Positions 12,001-60,097 of a stretch of DNA of 64,000 nt are shown piece after piece. The translations under genes were made by a program, and so were the position numbers. Numbering within the stretch: the stretch's first letter is position 1; each line of letters begins with the position of its first letter. The DNA comes from an uncultured Gammaproteobacteria bacterium. GTDB lineage: Bacteria; Patescibacteriota; Patescibacteriia; 2-12-FULL-57-11. The stretch is from contig CAZYLV010000003.1 in assembly GCA_964648865.1 (NCBI GenBank), positions 33,731 to 97,730 on the forward strand, read 5' to 3'. The notes beneath the pieces were generated by a model. The model searched no databases. It had not been told where the DNA came from and worked only from the letters and a program-made list of their open reading frames with translations.

Positions 12001-13959
12001 ATGGACGACGTCCGTACGCCCTTGGGCATGACCGTCCGTCGCAGCGACGAGCGCTGGGACGTGACCGATGCCGCAGCGACCGAGAAGCGTCCCGAGACGT
12101 CGGCCCGCGCACAGTATCTCGGCGTCGCCGTGAGCCGTCGCCGGCTCATCGCCCTCATCGGCGTGCTGATGGCCGCCTTCGGCATCCTCACGGCGCGTGC
12201 GGCCCAACTCCAGGTCTTCTCCGGCGAGGAGCACCGCAGCCAAGCCGACCGCAACCGCGTACGGGTGCTGCCGACGCGCGCCGTGCGCGGCGTCTTCTTC
12301 GACCGCGCCGGCACGCCGCTCGTGACCAACGTCCCGACGTTCGCCCTGATGCTGACCTACGCCGACCTGCCCGTCGACGACCCGCAGCGCATCGCCGTCA
12401 TCGCCGACGCGGCGCGGCTCTCCGGCGTGCCGGTCGAGGAGCTTGCCATGGCCGTCGGCGAGGCCCGCCGTACGCCCTTCGTCCCATACGCCGCGGCCAC
12501 GGACATCCCGTACGACAACGCCTTGCGCGTGGAGGTGGCCGCGGAACGGCTGCCCGGGGTGAGCGTCGTCGTGGATACCGTCCGGCAGTATGCCGGGGGC
12601 GCCGAGGCGCAGTCCCTTGGCCATCTCTTCGGCTACGTCGGGAAGATCACCGAGGGGCTCTATGCGGCCGCGACGCCCGGCACGTACCTGCTCAACGACC
12701 GCGTCGGCCGGGCCGGCATCGAGGCCGCGCTCGAGCCGCTGCTGCGCGGCAGCTACGGCACCCGGCAGGTGGAGGTCGACGCCCTCGGTCGGGAACGGCG
12801 CGTCATCGCCGAGGAGCCGCCCGAGGACGGCGCCAGCGTGCGGTTGACGGTCGACCTCGCCGCGCAGGAGAAGCTCGAGCAGGTGCTGACGGCCGCCATG
12901 CGCCGCATCGGCCGGACGCGGGCCGCGGCCGTGGCCCTGGATCCGCGCGACGGGGGCGTCATCGCTCTCGTCTCGCTGCCGGGCTACGGCCAGAACCTCT
13001 TCTCCGGCGGCGTGGCCTCGAGCACCTACCGCGCCCTGGCCGAGGATCCCGACGCTCCGCTCTTCCCGCGCGCCGTCTCCGGCACCTACCCGTCCGGCTC
13101 GACCATCAAGCCGCTGGTCGCCGCGGCGGCGTTGGAAGAAGGCATCGTCGGCGAGCGGACCACGGTGCTCTCCACCGGCGGCGTGCGCTACGGGGAGTGG
13201 TTCTTCCCGGACTGGCGCACCGGCGGCCACGGCTCGACCGACGTCAAGAAGGCCATCGCCGACTCGGTCAACACGTTCTTCTACATGGTCGGCGGCGGCA
13301 CCGACAGCTTCCCGGGGCTGGGCATCGACCGGCTCGCGCAGTGGTTCCGCCGCTTCGGCCTCGGCGAGGCGACGGGCGTCGAGCTGCCGGGTGAGGCTGC
13401 GGGCCTCGTGCCGACGCCGGACTGGAAGGAACGCACCAAGCGGCAGTCGTGGTTCATCGGCGACACCTATCACGTCTCCATCGGGCAGGGCGACGTGCTG
13501 GTGACGCCGCTGCAGATGGCCACGGTGACCCAGGCCTTCGCCAACGGCGGCACGGTCTACGGGCCGCGGCTGGTGGCCGCGCACGTCGCCGAGGGCACGG
13601 AGACGATCGAGCCGGCCCGCGTGCTGGCGGACGGCTTCCTGGACGCCGAGACGCTGCGCATCGTCCGCGAGGGCATGCGCCAGACCGTCCTTGCGGGCAG
13701 CGCGCCCTCGCTGCAGCTCGTGCCGGTCCCCGTGGCCGGCAAGACCGGCACCGCGCAGTGGCGCGACGGCCGGCCGACGCACGCCTGGTTCACCGGCTTC
13801 GCGCCTTACGACCGCCCGGAAATCGTCGTCGCCATCCTCATCGAGGAAGGCGGCGAGGGTTCGTCGGTGGCCGTGCCTGTGGCACGGGAGTTCCTCAGCT
13901 GGTATTTCGGCGCCCGTCTGTCCACACCGTCGCTTGACGGCGCCGCGGCCGGCCGGTAG
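12001..13959 (+). CDS. mrdA: penicillin-binding protein 2 (peptidoglycan D,D-transpeptidase)
   Basis: Internal ATG of track ORF 11869..13959, 2 nt after the mreD stop. Motifs: STIKP (SxxK), a SGN-like region and KTGTA (KTG), plus an N-terminal TM anchor. Ends with TAG. Confidence 0.9.
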   Translation: MDDVRTPLGMTVRRSDERWDVTDAAATEKRPETSARAQYLGVAVSRRRLIALIGVLMAAFGILTARAAQLQVFSGEEHRSQADRNRVRVLPTRAVRGVFFDRAGTPLVTNVPTFALMLTYADLPVDDPQRIAVIADAARLSGVPVEELAMAVGEARRTPFVPYAAATDIPYDNALRVEVAAERLPGVSVVVDTVRQYAGGAEAQSLGHLFGYVGKITEGLYAAATPGTYLLNDRVGRAGIEAALEPLLRGSYGTRQVEVDALGRERRVIAEEPPEDGASVRLTVDLAAQEKLEQVLTAAMRRIGRTRAAAVALDPRDGGVIALVSLPGYGQNLFSGGVASSTYRALAEDPDAPLFPRAVSGTYPSGSTIKPLVAAAALEEGIVGERTTVLSTGGVRYGEWFFPDWRTGGHGSTDVKKAIADSVNTFFYMVGGGTDSFPGLGIDRLAQWFRRFGLGEATGVELPGEAAGLVPTPDWKERTKRQSWFIGDTYHVSIGQGDVLVTPLQMATVTQAFANGGTVYGPRLVAAHVAEGTETIEPARVLADGFLDAETLRIVREGMRQTVLAGSAPSLQLVPVPVAGKTGTAQWRDGRPTHAWFTGFAPYDRPEIVVAILIEEGGEGSSVAVPVAREFLSWYFGARLSTPSLDGAAAGR

Positions 13960-22375: not shown

Positions 22376-23817
22376 CACAAGCGCGAGCGGGCTTGTCTGA
22401 TGCGTCGCACGACGTCGTCCCGCGACAGCAACGGAGCGATCTCGAAGGGTCCCGGTGAGGCAGGCAGCCCTGTGAGCGCCACGCGCAACGGCCACAACAC
22501 GTCGCCGTTCTGGAGCCCTTCTGCGGCGATCCAGGCCTTGAGTCCCCCCTCGATCGCTGCGGCGCTCCACTCCCCCGCGTAGGTCTCGAACCAGGCGGCC
22601 AGGCCATCGAGCGCCGCTTGGGTACGCGCGAGGTCCGACTTCTTCCAGATGAGCAGCGACGGATCGTGCTCGGCCGGCCCGCGGAAGAGGAACGAGACGA
22701 GCTCCGGCAGCTGCGGCATGCGCACCAACCGGTCCTTGGCCAATGCTACCACGCCGGCGAGCCACTGCGCATCATCAAGACGGCCGTCGCAGCCCGCTTT
22801 CCTGAGCTCCTCCGCGGCCATCTCGGCAAGCCGATCCTCCGGCAAGGCCCGCAGGTACTGGGCGTTCAGCCAGTCCAGCTTCTCGAAGTTGACGACCGCG
22901 CCCGACGGGTTGACCTTGGCGAGATCGAAACGCTGCGCAAGCTCATCGACCGCGTATATCTCCCGCTCCCCCGTCGGATTCCAGCCGAGCAGCGCGACGA
23001 AGTTGATGAGCGCCTCCGGCAGGTAACCCTTGGCGAGATAGTCCTCCACGGCCACGTCGCCCTGGCGCTTGGACAGCTTGCTGCGGTCGGCGTTGAGCAG
23101 GAGCGGCAGGTGCGCGAAGACCGGCGGCGTCCAGCCGAAGGCCTCGTAGAGCAGCACGTGTTTGGGGGTCGAGGAGATCCACTCCTCGCCGCGGATGACG
23201 TGGCTGATGCGCATGTCATGGTCGTCGACGACGTTGGCCAGGTGATACGTGGGGAATCCGTCGCTCTTGGAGAGCACGGCGTCGTCGATGGAGGACGTCG
23301 GGAAGCGGATGTCGCCGCGGATCGCGTCCGTGAAGGCGACCTCGGCGCGGTCGCGCGGCACGGCGAGGCGGATGACGTGCGGCGTGCCGGCGCCGATGCG
23401 GGCGGTCCGTTGGTCGGCCGTGAGCCTCCGGCAACGGCCGTCGTACATCGGCGGCTCCTTGCGCGCGGCCTGGTGCTGGCGCATGGCCTCGAGTTCCTTC
23501 GACGTGCAGAAGCACGGGTAAGCCTTCCCGGCATCGACGAGCCGCTTCAGGTGCTCGTCATAGAGCGCCAGCCGCTCGCTCTGCACCACGGGCCCTTCGT
23601 CCCAGGTGAGACCCATGGTCGTGAGCGTCTCCATGAGCCTTTCCGCCGCGCCGGGCACGAGCCGGCTGCGGTCCGTGTCCTCGATGCGCAGGGCGAAGAC
23701 GCCGCCATGCTTGCGGGCGAAGAGCGCGTTGTAGAGCGCCGTGCGCAGCCCGCCGATGTGGAGGTATCCCGTGGGACTGGGCGCGAATCGAACACGGATG
23801 GTGTTCGACGATGGCAT
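22375..23817 (-). CDS. gltX: glutamate--tRNA ligase
   Basis: 480 aa from the internal Met of track ORF 22375..24696. HIGH motif (PTGYLHIGG) and KMSKS motif (KLSKRQG). Confidence 0.93.
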   Translation of the reverse strand: MPSSNTIRVRFAPSPTGYLHIGGLRTALYNALFARKHGGVFALRIEDTDRSRLVPGAAERLMETLTTMGLTWDEGPVVQSERLALYDEHLKRLVDAGKAYPCFCTSKELEAMRQHQAARKEPPMYDGRCRRLTADQRTARIGAGTPHVIRLAVPRDRAEVAFTDAIRGDIRFPTSSIDDAVLSKSDGFPTYHLANVVDDHDMRISHVIRGEEWISSTPKHVLLYEAFGWTPPVFAHLPLLLNADRSKLSKRQGDVAVEDYLAKGYLPEALINFVALLGWNPTGEREIYAVDELAQRFDLAKVNPSGAVVNFEKLDWLNAQYLRALPEDRLAEMAAEELRKAGCDGRLDDAQWLAGVVALAKDRLVRMPQLPELVSFLFRGPAEHDPSLLIWKKSDLARTQAALDGLAAWFETYAGEWSAAAIEGGLKAWIAAEGLQNGDVLWPLRVALTGLPASPGPFEIAPLLSRDDVVRRIRQARSRL

Positions 23818-24525
23818 AGGCGGTTTCCGAGAAGAAAACAGGACAGTCAGCGGGAAAATGATAACAGCGCGGACGATGCGCCACAACCGCCGTGGCTGAA
23901 GGACGAGCCGCCACAGCCACTCCAGGCCGAGGCGCTGCATCAGACGTGGCGCGCGCGGTACGCGCCCGGTGAGGAAGTCCAGGCCGCCGCCCACGGCCAT
24001 CAGCAGCCGCGCCTTGGGATACGCCGCGCCGAACCGCGCGATCCAGCGCTCCTGGTGCGGCGCGCCGAAGTTGACGATGATGACCTCCTCATCTCCCCCG
24101 TCCGCACCCACGGAGCGCCGTTCCTCCACGGCGAAGCGGAGCGCCGGCCAACGGGCACGGACCGCGGTGGAGATGTCCGCGGCACCGCTCAACCCGCCAT
24201 GCCGGATGACGAAACGTACCGTGAGCCCCCGGGCGGCCGCTTCGTCCAGGACCGACTCCATCATGTCCGCGCCCGGTACGCGCTCCGCGGCGAGGCCGCG
24301 CAGGAGCAGCGCCCAGACCACGCCGGTGCCGTCAGGCAGCAGCAGTACGGCACGCGCGAGGGCCTCCGCGAGCGCCGGGTCGCGCCTGGCCGCCAGGACG
24401 ATCTCCGGATTCACGGAGAGCGCCGTCACGCCGCGTCCCGTGCGGAGCGCCTCCCGCAACGCCGCTTCGGCGCCGGTGCGGGTCAGCGCGTCCACCGGAG
24501 CGCCGGCGACGGTCGTGCGTATCAT
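23818..24525 (-). CDS. WecB/TagA/CpsF-family glycosyltransferase (N-acetylmannosaminyltransferase-like), in-frame with gltX with no stop between them
   Basis: A ~236-aa region (MIRTTVAG ... VNPEIVL ... NFGAPHQERWIA ... LDFLTGRVPRAP.. EWLWRL) matches the WecG/TagA family. It reads straight into the GluRS Met (..FSSRKPPMPSSN..). Confidence 0.7.
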
Positions 24526-25076
24526 ACGCCGAGCGGGTAGCCGTGGAGCTCGGTATAGCGCGCGCCGCCGCGGCCGATGTCGCTTCGGTAGAGACCGAAT
24601 CGGTCGACGAGGAAGCGCGTCTCCGCTACGTGCGCGCGGAAGGCATCCGCCGGCACCGGCGCCTCGAGCCGGGCCACGGTGAGATGCGGCGCCCAAGGAC
24701 GATGGTCGACGTCGATCCGCAGGCGCTCCAGCTCCTTGCCGACATCCTCGCGCAACGAGGCGACGGCCGATCCGTGCGGCTCGGCGACCCCCACCCAGAC
24801 GACGCGCGGGTGCACCGCGTCCGGGAAGAACCCGACCTCGGTGAGCCGGACCTCGGTCGGGCGATACCGTGCCGCGATGGGCGCCATGGCGGCGTGCACG
24901 GCCGCGACGCTCCCCTCCTCGAGATGCCCGAGGAAATGCAGGGTCATGTGGATGCTCTCGGGCGGCGCCCAGCGCACGCGCGGCCGCACCGAGCGACGCA
25001 TCTGTCGCATCACGTCATCAAGCACCTGCCGGACGCCGGCGGGAATCGGGATGGCCAAGAAGAGGCGCAAGGACAT
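24522..25076 (-). CDS. thpR: RNA 2',3'-cyclic phosphodiesterase (2H family, ThpR/LigT)
   Basis: 184 aa. Two H-x-T/S-x motifs (HMTLHFLG and HLTVARL). Overlaps the WecG-like start by 4 nt. Confidence 0.8.
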   Translation of the reverse strand: MSLRLFLAIPIPAGVRQVLDDVMRQMRRSVRPRVRWAPPESIHMTLHFLGHLEEGSVAAVHAAMAPIAARYRPTEVRLTEVGFFPDAVHPRVVWVGVAEPHGSAVASLREDVGKELERLRIDVDHRPWAPHLTVARLEAPVPADAFRAHVAETRFLVDRFGLYRSDIGRGGARYTELHGYPLGV

Positions 25077-25114
25077 GGCGGAATCGTAAGGAAATCCACG
25101 GCTTCCGTCCACCC

Positions 25115-25142
25115 TTGACGCTCCTCTCCATGATGGTATGCT
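25115..25142 (+). promoter_or_regulatory. sigma70-like promoter for clpB (TTGACG-N16-TATGCT)
   Basis: The hexamers and spacing are visible in the sequence. They are followed by the CIRCE element and the SD GGAGG. Coordinates approximate. Confidence 0.45.
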
Positions 25143-25144
25143 GG

Positions 25145-25171
25145 TTAGCAGTCAAGCATCGAGAGTGCTAA
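25145..25171 (+). promoter_or_regulatory. CIRCE element (HrcA operator) upstream of clpB
   Basis: TTAGCAGTC-N9-GAGTGCTAA versus the consensus TTAGCACTC-N9-GAGTGCTAA (one mismatch). It lies between the -10 and the RBS. Confidence 0.65.
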
Positions 25172-25183
25172 CCGGAGGACCCT

Positions 25184-27823
25184 ATGGCAAACGACCGTTT
25201 CACCAAGAAGGGCGACGAGGCCGTTCGCGCCGCGCGCGAGATCGCCGAGCGGCACCGGCACCGCGCCATCGACGACATGCATCTGCTCTCCGCGCTGGTC
25301 AGCCAGCCGGACGGGTTGGTCCCCGGCGTCCTGGAGCGCATCGGCGTCGATGTCGATGCGTTGCTCGAGGAGACCGACGAGCTCATCCACGAGGGCATGC
25401 CCCCGGGCGAGATCGTCTTCGGTACGACGCGCCGCCTGATCGACGCGCTCTCCGCCGCGGAGACGCTCTCCCAGGAGATGGGCGACCCGGTGGTCGGCAC
25501 CGAACACATGTTCCTCGGGCTGCTCGATAAGGGCGAGCGCCTCATTCCCCTCTTCCAGGACCACGGGGTGGACCGCAAGAGCTTCGAGGCGGCGCTCAAG
25601 GACGCCCGCGAGGCCGGGACGGGGCGAGCCCCGGAGCGCGAGGCGCCCAAGGTGCTCGAGAAGTACGGCCGCAACCTCACGGCACTGGCGCGGCAAAAGA
25701 AGCTCGATCCGGTCATCGGTCGCGACGACGAGATCCGCCGCGTCATCCAGGTGCTCAGCCGCCGCACCAAGAACAACCCGGTGCTGGTGGGCGAGGCCGG
25801 GGTCGGCAAGACGGCCATCGTCGAGGGCCTGGCCCAGCGCATCGCCTCAGGCGACGTACCCGAGTCGCTGGTCGACCGCGACGTCGTGGCGCTGGACCTC
25901 GGCGCCCTCGTGGCCGGCACCAAGTTCCGCGGCGAGTTCGAGGAGCGCCTCTAGGCCGTCATGAAGGAGATCGAGAAATCGAACGGCGGCATCATCCTCT
26001 TCATCGACGAGCTCCACACGCTCGTCGGCGCCGGCGGAGCCGACGGCGGCTCGCTGGACGCCTCCAACATCCTCAAGCCTGCGCTGGCCCGCGGCGAGCT
26101 GCACGCGATCGGCGCCACGACGCTGCGCGAGTTCCAGAAGCATATCGAGAAGGACCCCGCGCTGGAGCGGCGCTTCCAGCCGGTCATGGTCCATGAGCCG
26201 ACGGTCGAGGACACCATCGCCATGCTCCGCGGCATCAAGGAGAAATACGAGGTCCACCACGGCGTCAAGATCACCGACGCCGCCATCGTCGCCGCTGCCG
26301 AGCTCAGCCACCGTTACATCAACGACCGCTCCCTGCCGGACAAGGCCGTCGACCTCGTGGACGAGGCCGCCGCCGCGCTGCGCATGGACGTCGACAGCCA
26401 GCCCGTGGAGATCGAGCGCCTGCGCCGCGACGCCACGCGCCTGGAGATCGAGAAGCGCGCCCTGGAGGCCGAGGACGACCCGGCACAGGCCGAGCGCAAG
26501 ACCCAGGTCGGCCGCGAGCTGGTCGAGCTCAACGAACGCATCGCCGCGCTGGCCGCCAAGTGGACCAAGGAGAAGGAGATCGTCGGCGCGCTGCGCACGG
26601 CCCAAAAGGAGCTGGAACGCCTGCGCACCGAGAGCGACATCGCCGAGCGCCGCGGCGAGCTCGAGCAGGTCGCCGAGATCCGCTACGGCCGCATCCCGGC
26701 GCAGGAAAAGGCCATGGCCGCGCTCGAGGAGAAGCATCGCACCCAGAAGGGCGAACGCTTCATCAAGGACAAGGTCGGCGCCGAGGAGATCGCCGCGGTC
26801 GTCTCGCGCTGGACCGGCATCCCGGTCACCAAGATGCTCGAGACGGAACGGGAGAAGCTCCTGCAGCTCGAGGCCGGACTCGGCAAGCGCGTCGTCGGCC
26901 AGCCCGAGGCCATCGCCGCCGTGGCCAACGCGCTCCGCCGCAACCGCGCCGGGGTGAGCGAGGGCGAACGGCCCATCGGCTCGTTCCTCTTCCTGGGCCC
27001 AACGGGCGTCGGCAAGACGGAGCTGGCCCGCGCGCTGGCCGCCTATCTCTTCAACGACGAGACGGCCATGATCCGGGTGGACATGTCCGAGTTCATGGAA
27101 CGCCACGAGACGGCCAAGCTGATCGGTTCGCCGCCCGGCTACGTCGGCCACGACGAGGGCGGCCAGCTCACCGAGAAGGTCCGCCGCCGGCCGTACAGCG
27201 TGGTGCTCTTCGACGAGGTCGAGAAGGCCCATCCGGACGTCTTCAACCTGCTGTTGCAGATCCTCGACGACGGCCGGCTGACGGACGCCAAGGGCCGCCG
27301 CGTGAACTTCAAGAACACCGTCATCATCATGACCTCCAATGTCGGAAGCCGCTCGCTCAGCCAGGTCACGACCGGCGCGGCGTTGGGCTTCGCCGACGGC
27401 GACGGCGGGCAGGAACCGGAGCAGCGCATGCGCGAGAAGATCCGCGAGGAGCTCGAGGAGCGCTTCCGGCCGGAGTTCCTCAACCGCGTCGACGAGATCA
27501 TCACCTTCCATCCGCTCACGAGGACGCATATCGCCGACATCGTCGACGTGCAGCTCTCGCGGCTCGCCGAGCGGCTCAAGGAGCGCCGCGTCGCCGTGGA
27601 GGTGAGCGACGCCGCCAAGGCCTACCTGGCCGAGAAGGGCTACTCGCCGAGCTTCGGCGCCCGCCCGCTCAAGCGGCTCATCCAGACGGAGGTCGGCAAC
27701 CGCCTGGCCGAGGCATTGCTCAAGGGCGACATCGCCGAGGGCGACACGGCCGCGGTCGACGTCAAGAAGGACGCGCTGACCGTCAACCGCGCCCGCCGCA
27801 AGGTCAAGGCCGCCGTGGCCTGA
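25184..27823 (+). pseudogene. clpB: ClpB disaggregase, interrupted by a single in-frame TAG at 25952-25954 (conserved Lys position of ..[10 protein letters not shown]-..); otherwise intact
   Basis: Track ORFs 25184..25954 and 25961..27823 are contiguous ClpB in one frame. It carries an N-domain, NBD1 Walker A GEAGVGKT, a coiled-coil M-domain, NBD2 Walker A GPTGVGKTE and a sensor-2 region. TAG is a genuine stop elsewhere in this window. Confidence 0.85.
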
Positions 27824-27827
27824 TCCC

Positions 27828-27855
27828 AAAAGACCCCGCCGCGGCGGGGTCTTTT
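27828..27855 (+). terminator. Rho-independent terminator after clpB
   Basis: AAAAGACCCCGCC / GGCGGGGTCTTTT palindrome directly after the TGA stop. Confidence 0.6.
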
Positions 27856-27873
27856 GCTGTAGAATGGACGCGT

Positions 27874-28341
27874 ATGCTACGTGTCCCCTGGTTCCGACAA
27901 TCCCCCGGCCGCTGCGGACCGACGGTCCTGCGGATGGTGCTGGCCTATCATGGCATTTCTGCCTCCGAGCGTCTGCTCGCCAAACTCACCGGCTGCAAAC
28001 CGGTCTGGCATCCGGAAGGCACCTCGGCGGAAGGCATCATCCGCGGCGCCGAACGCTTCGGGCTGCGCGGACGCGTCCTGGACCGAAGCAGCATCCCGGC
28101 GCTGCGCCGGCTGGTCCGTCGCGGCGTCCCGCCCATCGTCGATTGGTTTTCCGTGGACGAAGGCCACTACTCCGTGGTCGTCGACGTGACGGCGGACCGC
28201 GTGGTCCTGCGCGACCCCTCCGTCCCCGGCTTCGTGCGCCTCCCGCACGACACCTTCCTCCGCGTCTGGTTCGACTTCCACGGCGCAGCGCGCTCGCCGA
28301 AGGCGCTCATCGTGCGGCGCGCCATCGTGGTCTCGCTGTGA
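27874..28341 (+). CDS. peptidase C39-like domain protein (papain-fold Cys peptidase-like, 155 aa)
   Basis: Only the last 155 aa of track ORF 26560..28341 are taken as real. The pattern (..WFRQSPGRCGPTVLRMVLAYHG.. ..GHYSVVVD..) matches C39-like peptidases, with a Q/C ... H arrangement. The upstream part of that ORF overlaps clpB out of frame. Confidence 0.55.
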   Translation: MLRVPWFRQSPGRCGPTVLRMVLAYHGISASERLLAKLTGCKPVWHPEGTSAEGIIRGAERFGLRGRVLDRSSIPALRRLVRRGVPPIVDWFSVDEGHYSVVVDVTADRVVLRDPSVPGFVRLPHDTFLRVWFDFHGAARSPKALIVRRAIVVSL

Positions 28342-40933: not shown

Positions 40934-41773
40934 TCAGGAGGACTTCTTCTTGGCCTTCTTCTTGGGCGCCTCCTCGCCCGCTTCCTCGACCTCGGCGGTC
41001 TCCTCGGCCGGCGCCTCCTCAAGCTCCGGCGCCTGGGCCATCATGGTGTCGTCGGCGACGATGTCCGTGGAGCCGTCGCCGGCGCCTTCCAGCCCGTTGA
41101 GCAGGCTGAAGTGGCGCAGCAGGATCTTGTTGGCCTCGAGCACGGCGTCCTTGGGCGTGATGGTGCCGTCGGTCTCGATGGTCATCATCAGCTTGTCGTA
41201 GTTGGTGATGTCGCCGACGCGGGTGTTCTCCACCTGGAAGCCGACGGTGCGGACCGGGGAGAACAGGGCGTCCACGGCGATCGTGCCGAGCTCCATCTTC
41301 TCCTTGTCGCGCTCCTCGGTGGGACGCCAACCGCGGCCGCGCTCGACGGTCACCTCCATCTCGAGCGAGCCCTTCTTGTCCGTGATGGTGCACAGGTGCA
41401 GGTCCGGATTGGCGATCTCGACCTGGGCATCCTTGGAGAAGTCTCCGGCCGTGACGTCGCGTTCGCCGTCCACGGAGAGGGTCAGCTTGACCGGCTCCTC
41501 GGAGAAGGACGAGATGCGCACCTGCTTGAGGTTGAGGATGAGCTCGAGCACGTCCTCCTTGACGTCGGGGATGGCCGAAAACTCGTGCTGCACGCCCTTG
41601 ATGCGCACCGCGGTGATGGCGGCACCGGGCAAGGAGGACAGCAGGGCACGGCGCAGGGCGTTGCCGATGGTCGTGCCGTAGCCCTGGGTGAACGGTTCCA
41701 CGACGAGCATGGCCTCGTTGGCGTGGCTCCCGGGGCGCAGCTCGATCTTGGACGGGTAGAGGATGTCCTCCAT
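40934..41773 (-). CDS. rpoA: DNA-directed RNA polymerase subunit alpha, N-terminal domain only (no alpha-CTD)
   Basis: 279 aa. Alpha-NTD motifs (..EPFTQGYGTTIGNALRR..). It ends in an acidic/Lys-rich tail (..EEAPAEETAEVEEAGEEAPKKKAKKKSS). No helix-hairpin-helix CTD is encoded. Confidence 0.9.
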   Translation of the reverse strand: MEDILYPSKIELRPGSHANEAMLVVEPFTQGYGTTIGNALRRALLSSLPGAAITAVRIKGVQHEFSAIPDVKEDVLELILNLKQVRISSFSEEPVKLTLSVDGERDVTAGDFSKDAQVEIANPDLHLCTITDKKGSLEMEVTVERGRGWRPTEERDKEKMELGTIAVDALFSPVRTVGFQVENTRVGDITNYDKLMMTIETDGTITPKDAVLEANKILLRHFSLLNGLEGAGDGSTDIVADDTMMAQAPELEEAPAEETAEVEEAGEEAPKKKAKKKSS

Positions 41774-52938: not shown

Positions 52939-53384
52939 GGGCGGCTGAGGTTCTCGGAAATCAGGGACTCGATGTCGTCGACCCAACGGGCGTCGCCCGG
53001 CGTCGGCTCCTCGTCTTGCCGAGGAGCGGCCGGGGGGAGTGCCCGCGCATCGGACCGCGGCAGGGATGGCCGTGCGAAGGCACCGCGGATGAAGGCGGCC
53101 GCGGCGCGGTCGGCGGCGTCGGCGACCTCGATGCTGCCGAGCGCCACTCTCCCCCACCACAACGCCGCCGTCTCGGAGACGCGGAAGGCGAACTCGTCCC
53201 AGGCGGCGACGCCTCGGGTGAGTGCGCTGCGCGCATCGGCCAGCGGGTGCCAGCGGGAGACGGTCTGGACCGCGCGCCACGGCGCGGCCGCCACGTCGAT
53301 GCGCAGGTCCTCGAAGCCGCGCGCCGCGACAGGTGCGGGCAGGAGCACGGCGGCAAGCAGTACGGCGACGACGACCCCCCTCAT
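52935..53384 (-). CDS. small secreted protein (149 aa, signal peptide MRGVVVAVLLAAVLLPAPVAARG)
   Basis: Internal Met of track ORF 52935..53867. Its ATG overlaps the upstream ATPase stop (ATGA) and its stop overlaps the next gene's start by 4 nt. Confidence 0.5.
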   Translation of the reverse strand: MRGVVVAVLLAAVLLPAPVAARGFEDLRIDVAAAPWRAVQTVSRWHPLADARSALTRGVAAWDEFAFRVSETAALWWGRVALGSIEVADAADRAAAAFIRGAFARPSLPRSDARALPPAAPRQDEEPTPGDARWVDDIESLISENLSRP

Positions 53385-55150
53385 GGCTGCGGCGGTCCGT
53401 CGAATTCGACCACTTCGCCCGGCGCCGGGCGGCCGCTCTTGGCCGAGAACGGCACCGGCTCCTGCTCCTTGAGCGCGGCAAGCGGCGCCGGCGGCTGCGC
53501 GGCCTCCTCGACGCGCTTGCGCTCGTCCTTGACGATCTTGAAGCAGTCGTCGCAGTAGTACGGGCGGCTGGGGTCCGGCTGGAAGGTCAGCTGGAGCTTC
53601 TTGCCGCAGCGTGCGCATGTGGCGTCGTGGAGCTTCTTGGCTTGCTTCGCCGGGGCGGGCGCCGACTTCTCGCCAGCGGGCGCCGGCTGGGGCGCGGGCG
53701 CTGCGGGCCTCGGGGCAGGCCGGGCAGGCGACGCGCTGCGGGGCGGCATCCGCCGCGCGGGAGCGGCGGATGCGGCACGCGGCGCCGGTCGCGGCGCGGC
53801 GCCCGTACGCGCGGGGGACGCGGCCGGCGTGCTGACGAAGGTCTCCCCGCCCGCCAGCCCGGACCACTGCAGGATCTTCTCCTCGATGACGGCGCGCGGC
53901 GTGGCGTAGCGCTCCCGCGACACCTTGATGACCTTGTCCGTGCTGCCGGTGCGGACGTTGATGGGCGGCAGCGTATTGGCGGAGAAGATCTCCGAGGCCA
54001 CGCCGTCGATCATCAGTTTGACGTAGACCTCGAACTTGGTGAGGTTGACAAGGTCCTCCGGCAGGAAACGCGGCGCCACCTCCTGCTCCAGGAACAGGGC
54101 GTCCGAGGCGCCGACGCGGAAGAAGACCATCGTGCCGACGTTGCCGAAGACGGCCGGCCGCACGTAGTCCTCGTCGAGCTGCTCGATGTACTGGTGGGCG
54201 ATGACCAGGTTGAGCCGGTACTTGCGCGCCTCGGAGAGGATGTTGGCGAAGCTGGCCGTGGCGAAGTTCTGGAACTCGTCGACGTACAGGTAGAAGTCGC
54301 GGCGGTCCTCCTCCGGCATGTCGACGCGCTCCATGGCGGCGAGCTGCAGCTTGGTGATGAGCATGCCGCCGAGCAGGCGCGAGGAGTCCTCGCCGATGCG
54401 GCCTTTGGCCAGGTTGATGATTAGGATCTTGCCCTCGTCCATGACCTGCCGCATGTCGATGGTCGACTTCACCTGGGCCACGATGTTGCGGATGATGGTC
54501 GCCGCCAGGAACTGTCCGACCTTGTTCTGGATCGGGGCGATGGCCTCGTTGCGGAAGCGGTCCTCCCAGCGCGCGTACTCGTCCTGCCAGAAGGCCTTGA
54601 CCACCGGATCCCTGACCACCGCGAGCACGCGCTTGCGGAACTCCTTGTCCACGAGGATGCGGTTGATGCCGAGCAACGTCGAGCCGGGGTACTCGAGCAG
54701 CGTCAGGATGCAGTTGTTGAGGATGTGCTCCATCCGCGGGCTCCAGACGTCGGGCCAGATCTTCTTGAAGACGCCCATCAGGCCCTGGGCCGCGAGCGGC
54801 CGGGTGCGCTCGTCCACGGCCTCGAGCACGTTGAAGCCGATCGGGAAGTCGAGGTCGGCCGGGTTGAAGTAGACGACGTCGTTGATGCGGTGCGCCGGGA
54901 TGAAATCCAGGAGCTTCTCGGCGGTGTCGCCGTGCGGGTCGACGTAGGCCACGCCATGCCCCGCGGCGATGTCGTTGAGGATCATGTTCTCGAGCAGGGT
55001 CGTCTTGCCCATGCCCGTCTTGCCGAGCACGTAGACGTGCCGGCGGCGGTCGTCGGTCTTGATGCCGAACTTCCGCCGGGCGTTGCGGAAGTTGGTCTCG
55101 GCGAAGAAGTTGATCTCGCTGTCGTGGTCGTGGTCGTACTGCAGCGCCAT
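53381..55150 (-). CDS. type IV secretion coupling-protein-like ATPase (VirD4/TraG/TraD family, soluble) with a Pro/Ala-rich linker and C-terminal C4 zinc ribbon
   Basis: 589 aa. Walker A LGKTGMGKTTL and Walker B LYVDEFQNF. A T4CP C-terminal signature (..IAHQY.. ..FGNVGTMVFFRVG..). A C-terminal zinc ribbon CARCGKK...CDDC. No N-terminal TM helices. Confidence 0.75.
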   Translation of the reverse strand: MALQYDHDHDSEINFFAETNFRNARRKFGIKTDDRRRHVYVLGKTGMGKTTLLENMILNDIAAGHGVAYVDPHGDTAEKLLDFIPAHRINDVVYFNPADLDFPIGFNVLEAVDERTRPLAAQGLMGVFKKIWPDVWSPRMEHILNNCILTLLEYPGSTLLGINRILVDKEFRKRVLAVVRDPVVKAFWQDEYARWEDRFRNEAIAPIQNKVGQFLAATIIRNIVAQVKSTIDMRQVMDEGKILIINLAKGRIGEDSSRLLGGMLITKLQLAAMERVDMPEEDRRDFYLYVDEFQNFATASFANILSEARKYRLNLVIAHQYIEQLDEDYVRPAVFGNVGTMVFFRVGASDALFLEQEVAPRFLPEDLVNLTKFEVYVKLMIDGVASEIFSANTLPPINVRTGSTDKVIKVSRERYATPRAVIEEKILQWSGLAGGETFVSTPAASPARTGAAPRPAPRAASAAPARRMPPRSASPARPAPRPAAPAPQPAPAGEKSAPAPAKQAKKLHDATCARCGKKLQLTFQPDPSRPYYCDDCFKIVKDERKRVEEAAQPPAPLAALKEQEPVPFSAKSGRPAPGEVVEFDGPPQP

Positions 55151-55153
55151 ACG

Positions 55154-56635
55154 CTAGACCGGAAGGTTCTCGGGCGGCGCGCCGGTGCCGGCCTGGGAGG
55201 GCGCCGGCTGCTGCTTGGGGCGGATCGGCGGGGCCGCGGGCTCCACGGGCAGACGCAGCGGCGGCTCGGCGCGCTTGGACTCGGCCTTCTTGACGGTCGG
55301 GGTCTTCACCAGGAGCGACGGGAAGTGCCAGAGCGACGCCAGCTCCTCGGTCGACAGGATGTAGGGCGTGGCGCCGCGGAAGTTATGCCGGTACTTGTAC
55401 GCCCAGAAGATGGACTTGATGCGCTCGTTGGTCGTCTTGTAGAACGTGCCGGACAGGTAGAAGAAGATCGGATTGAGCTGCCAGAAGTAATCGTACTTGG
55501 TGGTCACCGGGCCGTAGAAGCCGAGCTTGTTGAGGTTGAGGGTGGTGAACTGCTGCAGCGCGCCGCGCACGAAGGAGATGATCGTGCCGGTGCGGAAGTT
55601 CTTCTTGGGGGCGATGTAGATGAAGCGGATCTTGGTCTTGAGCCCGATCTTGGAGAGCTTCTGCTCGACGCGCTCCACGACGAACCGCTCGCCCGGGGAG
55701 AGGTGCAGCATCTGGGAGCGCGGCTCCTCCTTCTTCTGCTGCGGTTTGGCCGGCTCGCCGCCGATCAGCCCGGAGACGCCGATGTCCAGCGCTTGGAGCG
55801 GCAGGTCCATGGCCTTGTCGAGCGCCGTCACCTTGGGCGCGACCTTGGCGCCGATGAGCTTCTTGACCAAGGTCTCGCCGGCGTCCTTCCAGTCCTGGCT
55901 GCAGGTCGTCACCAGGATCTGCAGCCAGACCTGCTCGCCCGCGCCCAGCTTGGCCAAGCCCTCGAGCAGACCGGCCATGGGATCCTTGAACTCGCCCGAG
56001 ATGGGATCGCTGAAATCGAGGTAGGTCTTGATGGGGTAGAACTCCGGCTTGCTCGGCACGAACTCCGAGCCGAAGAAACCCCACTCCTTGTTCGGCCAGG
56101 GCCACTGCTGCGGCACGTTGAGCACGTAGTCCTCGACCTCGGTGATCTCCGCCTCGGGATACTGCGCGTAGATGGTGGCCTCGACGAGGTCGCGGTACTT
56201 CTCCCAGACGCGCACCAGGAACTGCACGTACCCTTCGATGGAGACGATCTCGAAGCTGAAGACGGGCGGCATCTTGCCGTCCCAGAACCGCTCCTTGCGC
56301 GTGAAGCTGGAGTGCGCGCCGAGGAGTTGGGCGAAGATGTTCTCGACGGCCTTGGGTGTCTGCTCCGTGGACTTGGGCACGTCGACCGCCAAGAGCACCG
56401 GGTTGACCGAGTTGATGAACAGGAACTGGCGCTCGTTGATCCAGATCCACCAGAAACCGCGCAGGAAGACGATGAGTACGGGGATCCAGCCGCCGGCGCG
56501 GAACAGCTCCCACATGACGATCACCGGATGCTGGGCGCCGAGCCAGTCGATATACGCCAGAAAGGCACCGACGTCGATGGAGATCATCGGCATATGCGCA
56601 ACCAGTATAACACAGGAAAGACAAAGGAGGGGCAT
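55154..56635 (-). CDS. membrane protein (493 aa): N-terminal TM helices plus a large soluble domain; partner of the T4CP-like ATPase
   Basis: Track ORF. A hydrophobic N-terminus (..WIPVLIVFLRGFWWIWI..). No family recognised. Separated from the ATPase gene by 3 nt. Confidence 0.6.
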   Translation of the reverse strand: MPLLCLSCVILVAHMPMISIDVGAFLAYIDWLGAQHPVIVMWELFRAGGWIPVLIVFLRGFWWIWINERQFLFINSVNPVLLAVDVPKSTEQTPKAVENIFAQLLGAHSSFTRKERFWDGKMPPVFSFEIVSIEGYVQFLVRVWEKYRDLVEATIYAQYPEAEITEVEDYVLNVPQQWPWPNKEWGFFGSEFVPSKPEFYPIKTYLDFSDPISGEFKDPMAGLLEGLAKLGAGEQVWLQILVTTCSQDWKDAGETLVKKLIGAKVAPKVTALDKAMDLPLQALDIGVSGLIGGEPAKPQQKKEEPRSQMLHLSPGERFVVERVEQKLSKIGLKTKIRFIYIAPKKNFRTGTIISFVRGALQQFTTLNLNKLGFYGPVTTKYDYFWQLNPIFFYLSGTFYKTTNERIKSIFWAYKYRHNFRGATPYILSTEELASLWHFPSLLVKTPTVKKAESKRAEPPLRLPVEPAAPPIRPKQQPAPSQAGTGAPPENLPV

Positions 56636-56665
56636 GGTCCGCCATGCCCCTCCCGGTATGGATGC

Positions 56666-57572: not shown

Positions 57573-59321
57573 TCAGCCCTTCCGGACGCCCACGAGCCAG
57601 GCGTGCTTCTCCATCCACGGCCCGGCGATCGACAGCAGGAAGCCGCGCGTCACGAGGATGGCCGTGAACATGGACACCAGGATGCCGATGGCCAGCGTCA
57701 CGGCGAAGCCCTTGACCAGCGAGGTGCCGAGCCAGACCAGGATGGCGCAGGTGATGAGCGAGGAGACGTTGGAGTCGCGGATGGACAGCCAGGCGCGGCG
57801 GAAGCCCTCCTCGATGGCCTCGCGCACCGGCTTGCCGGACCGCAGCTCCTCCTTGAACCGCTCGAAGATGAGGATGTTGGCGTCCACGGCCATGCCGATG
57901 GACAGGATGAACCCGGCGATGCCCGCGAGCGTCAGCGTGACGTCGATACCCTTGAAGACCGCCAGGGTGAGCGCCGCGTAGACGGCCAGCGCCAGCGAGG
58001 CCACGAGCCCCAGGAAGCGGTAGAAGACGAGCATGAAGGCCACGACCAGCGCGAAGCCGATGAGCCCTGCCATGAGCGACTTCTCGAGCGAGGCGGCGCC
58101 GAGCGTCGGGCCGACGGTCTGCTGGGTGATGAGCGAGATGGGCACGGGGAGCGCGCCGGCGTTGAGGTTGCGCACCATCTGCTTGGCCTCGGGGATGGTG
58201 AAGGTGCCGGTGATCTGCGCCTCGCCGCCGAGGATCTCCTGCTGGACGATGGGGTCGGAGAGCTTGACGCCGTCCAGGAAGATGGCCAGCGGCCGGCCGA
58301 CGTTGCGCTTGGTGATGTCGGCGAACAGCTGGGCGCCCTCGGCGTCGAACTGCAGGCCGATCTGCACCGCACCCGTCTGCTGGTCGAAGAGCACGTTGGC
58401 GCGCTTGAGGTTCTTGCCGGTCAGGCCGCTGCCCTTCCATTCCTCGGGCGGGACGATGTCCGTCTCCGCGAGCTTGCCGATGAGGATGTGGCTGGCCTGC
58501 CATTCCGGCACGGTCGAGCCGAGGGTCTCGCCCTCCGTCGTCTCGACCTCAGGTCCTGCGACCTCGCGCTCGTCGGTCTTGAGGATGACGTGGTACCCGA
58601 ACTCCGTGGCCACCGGCGTCTTGGTGTATGCGCCCTTCTCGAGCCCGTCGACGGCCTGCTGGAACGCCGGAATCATCGCGCCTTGGCCGAACCAGCCCAG
58701 GTCGCCGCCCTGCTCCTTGCTGCCCGGGTCGTCCGAGAGTTCCTTGGCGAGCGCGGCGAAGTCCTCGCCCGCGTCGAGACGCGCGATGACCTCCTCGGCC
58801 TTCTTCTTGGCATCGGCGTCGCTCTCGGCGAGCTGCTGCCGCTCCTCTTCCGTGAGGGCGCGCGACGGCTCGGTGCTGACTTCCTTGAATTCCAGGAGCG
58901 GCGTCTCGCCGATCTTGCGGATGGCCTCCTCGACGTCCAGGATGCCGGCCAGGTCCACGATCAGCCGGTGGTCGTCGCCGACGATGGCCGTCTGCACCAG
59001 CGGCTCGGAGACGCCGAAGGCGTTGACCCGGCGCTCGATGACCTCACGGAGCCCGTTCAACTGCTCGCGCCGCTCGCCCTCGATGATGCCGGACATGTCG
59101 GCCTGGTAGACGAGATGCGAGCCGCCCTGCAGGTCGAGCCCGAGGCGGAACGGTTTGCTCGGGAAGCCGGCCACCGGGTACGCGAAGAGCGCGGCCAGGA
59201 CGCCGAACAGGATGACGCCCGCGGACAGCGCGCGGAAGCGCAGCGCGCCGCCGCGGAAGAACGAGGCCAACGGCGGACCGGATTTCCTGGAGGACTGGGG
59301 ATTCGCCATATCGCGCGGCAT
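57573..59321 (-). CDS. secD: protein translocase subunit SecD
   Basis: The start is taken at the Met (MPRDMANPQ...) of track ORF 57573..59465. Motif ..LGLDLQGGSHLVY.., a periplasmic domain and C-terminal TM helices. Confidence 0.9.
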   Translation of the reverse strand: MPRDMANPQSSRKSGPPLASFFRGGALRFRALSAGVILFGVLAALFAYPVAGFPSKPFRLGLDLQGGSHLVYQADMSGIIEGERREQLNGLREVIERRVNAFGVSEPLVQTAIVGDDHRLIVDLAGILDVEEAIRKIGETPLLEFKEVSTEPSRALTEEERQQLAESDADAKKKAEEVIARLDAGEDFAALAKELSDDPGSKEQGGDLGWFGQGAMIPAFQQAVDGLEKGAYTKTPVATEFGYHVILKTDEREVAGPEVETTEGETLGSTVPEWQASHILIGKLAETDIVPPEEWKGSGLTGKNLKRANVLFDQQTGAVQIGLQFDAEGAQLFADITKRNVGRPLAIFLDGVKLSDPIVQQEILGGEAQITGTFTIPEAKQMVRNLNAGALPVPISLITQQTVGPTLGAASLEKSLMAGLIGFALVVAFMLVFYRFLGLVASLALAVYAALTLAVFKGIDVTLTLAGIAGFILSIGMAVDANILIFERFKEELRSGKPVREAIEEGFRRAWLSIRDSNVSSLITCAILVWLGTSLVKGFAVTLAIGILVSMFTAILVTRGFLLSIAGPWMEKHAWLVGVRKG

Positions 59322-59500
59322 GGTAACGGATGCCGCGGCATCCCTGCAAGCTTGGGCACTTGCCAAGCCCTGGAGGCGTGGTAGGTTGGGAGTGGTCACG
59401 GCATGCCCCGCCCCACCCCAACTACCCCGGGGTTCGCCGCGACCCCGCCGCTTCCGGTCTCGCAACCCTCCCCCCGAGAGACCGTGGAACGGCGGTTTTT

Positions 59501-60097
59501 CTATTTCCTACCGACGACCTGGATCCATATCCCTGCGTGGTCGGCGTGAACGATGCGGAAGCCGGCGTCGGAGACGAACTGCCGCATCTCGTCCAGCGTG
59601 TGATAGCTGAAGAAGCGGGTATACGCATACCCATAGTCGTCCTCGGTCTTCTGTTCCTCCTCCGCCTGTCCCGGACGGATGTGTTTGACGGTCACGGAGA
59701 TCAGACCGCCGGGGTTCAGGCGGTCGCGACAGGCGCGCAGGACCCCCAGGACCTCGGACTTCTTGAGGTGCAGGAAGGACGCCCACGCCGTGATGGCGTC
59801 GTACGTCTCAGGCAGCGTCCCGACGTCCCGCATGTCCAGGACCTGGAACGCGATGCCCGGATACTCGCGCTGCGCGATCTCGATCATCTTCTCCGAGATG
59901 TCGACGCCGGTGACGGAAAACCCGCGGTCAGCGAGCCACCGCGCCTTGGTGCCGCCGCCGCAACCGACGTCGAGGACGCGCGCGCCGTCGGGCAGCAGGC
60001 CGACGAGCTTCTCGGCCCAGGCAAACCACCAGTCGTCCTTGAGGTGGTCGCGGTGCCAGTCCTCGGCGATGCGGTCGTAGGTGTCCTTAAGATCCAT
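59501..60097 (-). CDS. class I SAM-dependent methyltransferase (198 aa)
   Basis: Internal Met (MDLKDTYDRIAEDW..). Motif I VLDVGCGGG and acidic motif II. The upstream part of track ORF 59501..60424 is antisense junk. Confidence 0.75.
   Translation of the reverse strand: MDLKDTYDRIAEDWHRDHLKDDWWFAWAEKLVGLLPDGARVLDVGCGGGTKARWLADRGFSVTGVDISEKMIEIAQREYPGIAFQVLDMRDVGTLPETYDAITAWASFLHLKKSEVLGVLRACRDRLNPGGLISVTVKHIRPGQAEEEQKTEDDYGYAYTRFFSYHTLDEMRQFVSDAGFRIVHADHAGIWIQVVGRK

Follow-up and report, generated by a model that had tools for sequence, protein, structure and literature searches.

The clpB gene of an uncultured Patescibacteria bacterium is interrupted by one in-frame TAG codon at the place of an invariant lysine, and the explanation that we favour, with a little better than even confidence, is a very young A-to-T transversion (AAG to TAG at Lys257) that is real in the sampled population and makes the allele an effectively fresh clpB null. 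Throughout this text, the window is the whole stretch of DNA that was analysed, 64 kb in length. The data outlined below exclude an old pseudogene as well as global recoding and conserved programmed readthrough, and what is left is one very young base difference. The main competitor is a sequencing, polishing or consensus error that placed a T at 25952, in which case the organism has an intact 879-aa ClpB with Lys257; we regard this as a serious possibility, somewhat short of an even chance. It is improbable that the TAG is real and tolerated through a working ClpB, be it made by appreciable readthrough of the UAG or by the non-covalent assembly of a 256-aa and a 620-aa fragment. A preliminary description of this DNA had framed the locus as a very recent nonsense mutation, an error or a case of low-level readthrough, and this framing is supported, the stop being unique to this assembly and the gene being free of decay.

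The Interrupted clpB Reading Frame

The TAG at 25952-25954 stands in frame in the sequence GAG GAG CGC CTC TAG GCC GTC ATG AAG and is the sole break in a clpB frame of 879 sense codons that occupies window positions 25184..27823 on the plus strand (Table 1). Translation of 25184-27823 gives no second stop and no frameshift, and a product of 879 aa, a figure that replaces the ~876 aa put forward in the preliminary description. In the ORF map the gene appears as two pieces in one shared frame, 25184..25954 (256 aa) and 25961..27823 (620 aa), which had been read as parts of one continuous ClpB. Both the family model and the structural alignment agree with this reading. The upstream piece covers positions 1-254 of TIGR03346 (NCBIfam ClpB) and the downstream piece positions 258-852; once joined, they span positions 1-852 of 853 and have ClpB as the best-scoring family, at a score that misses the equivalog cut-off of the model (1197 bits vs 1232.1). 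The best relative with a solved structure is ClpB of Thermus thermophilus (1QVR, E 2e-280), whereas matches to the structures of ClpC and ClpA are confined to two separate stretches.

The hallmarks of ClpB are present on both sides of the stop, namely an N-domain and two AAA+ modules, with GEAGVGKT and FIDELH in the first nucleotide-binding domain (NBD1) and GPTGVGKT and LFDEVEKAH in the second (NBD2), so that the Walker A and Walker B motifs of both modules are there, as had been noted for the two halves of the gene. Residues ~400-530 align without gaps to the coiled-coil M-domain of 1QVR, and Clp_N and AAA are the Pfam families recorded on the orthologues. In the 1QVR alignment the stop falls on Lys252, nine residues after the aromatic residue of pore loop 1 (Phe248 in the window ClpB, Tyr243 in the T. 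thermophilus protein) and 18 residues before the Asp-Glu of Walker B. It is thus located between Walker A and Walker B, and the break is within the NBD1 core.

Table 1. Positions of the clpB features and of the CTAG tetranucleotides in the window.
Feature	Position	Strand	Basis or remark
Sigma-70-type clpB promoter: -35 TTGACG, 16-nt spacer, extended -10 TG-n-TATGCT	25115..25142	+	
CIRCE (HrcA binding site) TTAGCAGTC-N9-GAGTGCTAA	25145..25171	+	Between -10 and ribosome binding site
Shine-Dalgarno GGAGGA, 4 nt 5' of clpB ATG	25174..25179	+	Read from sequence
clpB codons 1-256: Clp_N domain, linker, start of NBD1	25184..25951	+	TIGR03346 1-254, 1QVR alignment
Walker A GEAGVGKT	25790-25813	+	clpB residues 203-210
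Pore-loop-1 Phe248 codon	25925-25927	+	1QVR alignment
In-frame TAG at invariant Lys (Lys257; T. thermophilus ClpB K252)	25952..25954	+	Relatives all AAG
clpB codons 258-879 and TGA stop: rest of NBD1, M-domain, NBD2, C-terminal small domain	25955..27823	+	TIGR03346 258-852
Met260 codon, sole candidate restart ATG	25961..25963	+	6 nt past stop
Walker B Asp-Glu, NBD1	26006-26011	+	
NBD2 Walker A GPTGVGKT	26996-27019	+	
CTAG sites	468, 4469, 8881, 9581, 20980, 21010, 21028, 25951, 39694, 47554, 55154, 56666		

The position of the break bears directly on the idea that clpB is a working split gene, with a 256-aa product and a 620-aa product of restart at ATG 25961 that together would form an active, non-covalent disaggregase complex. 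The nearness of an ATG to the stop speaks for this idea, as do the half-size Clp genes of ~438 aa that occur on long contigs in other phyla. Moreover, Beinker et al. 2005 (J Biol Chem 280:37965) are reported to have recovered activity from two halves of the T. thermophilus ClpB that had been made separately. However, the functional split in that work was reportedly a cut between NBD1-M and NBD2, and both this split and the natural 438-aa genes break at a domain boundary, while the clpB stop breaks the alpha/beta core of NBD1 and parts Walker A and pore loop 1 from Walker B. The ATG at 25961 is also without a proper Shine-Dalgarno sequence, having AGG alone at -6 nt and a GAGGAG as far away as -15 nt. 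In the codon alignment the same Met260 ATG is found in L005 and L001, two of the related loci used for comparison (a third, L006, has CTC), which makes it ancestral and not created for restart. The split itself is common to no relative. A functional split gene is for these reasons very unlikely; if fragment assembly were true, it would mean that an AAA+ core tolerates a cut separating Walker A from Walker B.

The ~438-aa proteins are an observation in their own right. Recorded as 'Clp N-terminal domain' proteins (P0154, P0158, P0174, P0228 and others), they consist of an N-domain and NBD1 only, and many of them are encoded on contigs of up to 1.6 Mb from Ignavibacteria and other phyla. Their genes appear to be Clp ATPase genes that are half-size or split by nature.

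Promoter and CIRCE Operator

The preliminary description had placed clpB behind a CIRCE-regulated promoter. Both elements are real and conserved 5' of clpB in the relatives, with the reservation that the CIRCE of the window is not a perfect copy: it deviates in one position from the consensus TTAGCACTC-N9-GAGTGCTAA. In a promoter search of positions 24900-28100 the clpB site was the sole promoter-like match (shuffled sequences average 0.2), and its -35 TTGAC is unchanged across the alignment with L005, L006 and L001. The operator begins 3 nt past the -10 element and is the one match in a CIRCE scan of the 64 kb, a scan in which 0/100 shuffles matched. A CIRCE with 0-2 mismatches is found at the equivalent place 5' of clpB in each of the six loci compared (L001-L006). 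The HrcA repressor itself is absent among the window ORFs scanned against Pfam. Conservation of the operator in these Patescibacteria points to clpB as a member of their HrcA regulon, as in Mollicutes, for which CIRCE control of clpB has already been described (PMC5138195).

The Ancestral Codon and the Uniqueness of the Stop

The column of the stop is Lys in 119/119 full-length homologues, and each of the five independent related loci compared (L001/L002, L003, L004, L005 and L006) has AAG as the homologous codon, with an identical 20-letter protein context around the site in three of them. The earlier claim of an amber codon at a conserved Lys, derived from AAG, is therefore confirmed. The accompanying statement that one transition restores Lys needs correction, since the change from AAG to TAG is an A to T at 25952 and thus a transversion. 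The window has a GC content of 64-75%, and the genome is described as high-GC (69%).

No relative compared shares the split clpB. The closest proteins come from Patescibacteria MAGs, the best full-length relatives being P0001 (79% identity) and P0002 (78%), and a protein search with the 273 residues centred on the stop returned no match above 80% identity. A degenerate DNA pattern for the peptide starting FEERL matched one genome contig, belonging to a groundwater MAG from Hainich, and three contigs from metagenomes, among which the Hainich contig itself reappears; AAG is present in all of them. The pattern matches in the genome and metagenome collections belong to other species only, at ~73-79% nucleotide identity. 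In a collection of 15 billion proteins each of the two fragments is present once, both on the same 100,895-bp contig from NCBI, and exact-protein look-ups of the 256-aa fragment, the 620-aa fragment and P0003 returned no contig. Exact-protein, cluster, DNA-pattern and protein searches found no second assembly of the species. Because the fragments are known from one public assembly only, a consensus or base-call error fits these data equally well as a real mutation, and the Lys in every one of the homologues likewise counts for an error. Such an error could originate from a minor strain variant or a miscalled base in the MAG consensus.

The surroundings of the gene are conserved as well, the order LigT, clpB, hypothetical gene, LigB, PriA, Def and Fmt being kept in the P0001 and P0002 contigs. 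Between clpB and the conserved hypothetical gene (473 aa) the window carries a small Peptidase_C39-like ORF at 27874-28341 on the plus strand (PF03412, E 1.4e-11). At this place the nearest two relatives, L005 and L006, show no more than a short spacer, and the ORF hence looks like a lineage-specific insertion.

Selection on clpB and Quality of the Assembly

Apart from the stop, the gene has evolved like an intact one. dN/dS against L005 and L006 is 0.16-0.22 (~0.18) both before and after the stop, and 0.13 when these two intact genes are compared with each other. Measured to the outgroup L001, the clpB of the window has a dN of 0.384 and the intact relatives have 0.405 and 0.410; the value of the window is not above theirs, which means that there has been no acceleration of rate. 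Of 261 columns with a conservation of 97% or more, the window protein departs from 8, the stop being one of the 8, and the nearest intact relatives depart from 11, 10 and 8. A long-standing pseudogene is rejected by dN/dS, by the relative rate, by the conserved-column counts and by the lack of a second lesion. By these sequence comparisons, clpB appears to have been under purifying selection until very recently.

The absence of decay is what a sequence error predicts, and it is compatible also with a very young mutation. A gene intact in all but one base and under purifying selection, whose sequence comes from a single public assembly, is thus part of the case for an error. Against it stands the state of the neighbouring genes: 15 other genes syntenic with L006 give single unbroken matches, with no internal stop and no frameshift, which implies a low local error rate. 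In addition, substitutions that create a stop are a small share of all errors. A generally poor assembly is rejected for the 20-kb syntenic block, in which these 15 other genes are intact. The low local error rate makes us lean slightly to a real mutation as the origin of the TAG.

TAG as a Terminator, Recoding and Readthrough

An in-frame stop at an invariant residue might also reflect a genome-wide reassignment of TAG, e.g., to Lys, pyrrolysine or another amino acid. The one fact on the side of reassignment is the in-frame TAG of clpB, which is alone in this respect, since only 1/16 of the genes syntenic with L006 has an internal stop and that gene is clpB. TGA is the main stop codon in the window, and TAG is a true stop as well. 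The genes of FtsQ and the M23 peptidase terminate at a TAG-G that coincides precisely with the C-terminal end of their orthologues, and TAG also terminates the helicase, PBP2 and SecF genes. This agrees with what had been claimed earlier, i.e., that TAG terminates other genes here and that global recoding is unlikely. It also speaks against recoding of the pyrrolysine or selenocysteine type. None of the other conserved genes of the 64 kb contains an internal TAG, and the window has no tRNA gene of any kind and therefore no tRNA(CUA). Reassignment is refuted for the window, and for the genome we give it a negligible probability.

Two candidates for further in-frame TAGs, at 13957 and at 55154/56666, were suggested by ORF pairs lying in the same frame and were rejected after translation, as each TAG proved to be the normal end of one gene, after which another gene begins at a start codon of its own. 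In the first pair PBP2 is followed by GreA, and the second run consists of SecF, then an unknown protein and then a VirD4-like ATPase. In this run secDF, the unknown protein (503 aa, no Pfam match) and the ATPase share one frame and are separated by TAG stops. The ATPase, a coupling ATPase of the VirD4/TrwB-like type with a treble-clef zinc finger (PF23477) at its C-terminus, lies within 53384-56665 on the minus strand after the 503-aa protein, and both are directly downstream of secDF. In SecD itself (57576-59507, minus strand) the periplasmic P1 region contains, as an insertion, a peptidyl-prolyl isomerase domain of the PpiC type (Rotamase_3, E 3e-25).

Two other proteins of the window were also noted. 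RpoA (40937-41773, minus strand) is only ~279 aa long and consists of the N-terminal dimerisation and insert domains followed by a tail that is first acidic and then lysine-rich; no match to the alpha-CTD was obtained even at E<=10. Glutamyl-tRNA synthetase (22378-24522, minus strand) carries a WecG/TagA-type glycosyltransferase domain as an N-terminal fusion, which is also found in L006.

Readthrough of the clpB stop, through a tRNA(CUA), a weak release factor 1 or a near-cognate tRNA, would yield useful full-length ClpB from the heat-shock promoter. The promoter, the CIRCE, the ribosome binding site and the catalytic motifs are all intact, as this explanation would have it, and basal UAG readthrough is general in bacteria; to our knowledge, there is some of it in all of them. 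Several observations argue against a leaky or suppressed stop. The TAG is found in no relative; its TAG-G context is the same tetranucleotide as at the genuine ftsQ and M23 terminators; the fold of the 121 nt that surround and follow the stop is no better than that of shuffled sequences (z -0.75), with no sign of a readthrough-stimulating RNA structure; the window is without a tRNA gene; and this is the single in-frame TAG among the genes checked. A leaky stop that supplies useful ClpB is accordingly very unlikely, if a shade less so than a working split gene. Taken together, the use of TAG as terminator of the neighbouring genes, a stop that is unshared, and the lack of a stimulating structure and of a suppressor tRNA in the window exclude global recoding and conserved programmed readthrough.

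The tetranucleotide CTAG, which is created by the clpB stop, is strongly under-represented across the window, with 12 copies seen vs 41.6 expected from trinucleotides (Table 1). Four of the other copies are at confirmed stops, three are in the ftsQ-M23 spacer and four were placed by comparison with the ORF map only; with this reservation for the last four, the clpB copy is the sole one placed within a gene. An intragenic CTAG in clpB fits a young change. It also counts for a sequence error, as far as the 12 copies are placed.

A Probable Fresh Nonsense Allele of clpB

In the explanation that we favour, a young nonsense mutation, clpB would have been an ordinary HrcA/CIRCE-controlled gene of a high-GC Patescibacteria genome before the change, and the TAG allele would be fixed or in the majority in the sampled population. 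Release factor 1 would stop at the clpB TAG, as may be expected from the normal use of TAG stops elsewhere in the window, and the main product would be a 256-aa fragment that contains the N-domain, Walker A and pore loop 1. Being without Walker B, sensor 1, the arginine fingers, the M-domain and NBD2, this fragment should be inactive. Near-cognate readthrough would produce traces of full-length protein at most, and restart at ATG 25961 traces at most of a 620-aa fragment devoid of the NBD1 Walker A. With an inactive fragment and only traces of other products, the allele would be effectively a clpB null, which would be tolerable because ClpB is needed mainly under heat stress.

A real stop would amount to the recent loss of a disaggregase by a bacterium of the groundwater type with a reduced genome, which is unsurprising for a heat-stress gene. 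In practical terms, the locus should be annotated as clpB with an internal stop, as a pseudogene or a possible sequence error, and not as two genes, and the stop is no hint of an altered genetic code. The finding is of an already known kind and carries little weight beyond annotation.

Comparison With Known Systems

Apart from its interruption, the protein corresponds to the bacterial ClpB/Hsp104 disaggregases (1QVR, TIGR03346), with which it aligns end to end, in the order N-domain, NBD1, M-domain and NBD2 and with all Walker motifs. It differs from them in the interrupted frame, in the Phe for Tyr in pore loop 1 and in the GEAGVGKT of the first Walker A. The last two differences are typical of the Patescibacteria ClpB homologues, of which 108/119 have Phe in pore loop 1, where E. 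coli and Thermus have Tyr, and 96/119 have GEAGVGKT and not GEPGVGKT as first Walker A.

Within the Patescibacteria, UGA is reassigned to Gly in Gracilibacteria and Absconditabacteria. The clpB locus resembles these cases in the superphylum and in having an in-frame stop in a conserved gene, but here the codon is TAG and occurs once, TGA is the main stop and TAG also terminates. Regulation of the gene is reminiscent of the HrcA/CIRCE-controlled clpB of Mollicutes (PMC5138195), in which the CIRCE inverted repeat is likewise located directly at the clpB promoter; here, however, the phylum is Patescibacteria and no hrcA gene is present in the window.

The defect itself has two counterparts. Consensus or base-call errors of MAGs, which appear as 'internal stop' pseudogenes, share with it the isolated one-base lesion in a conserved gene, the lack of decay and the restriction to one assembly, and differ in that the 15 neighbouring syntenic genes are error-free here. 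The other counterpart is the amber (TAG) at codon 33 of rpoS in some E. coli K-12 stocks (PMC2700278). In both genes a single base change creates a TAG in a dispensable stress-response gene, while the remaining gene, the promoter and the regulation are intact and the allele is limited to some lineages. In contrast to rpoS, the clpB allele is known from one metagenome-assembled genome, and its stop lies within the ATPase core, which makes a working restart product unlikely.
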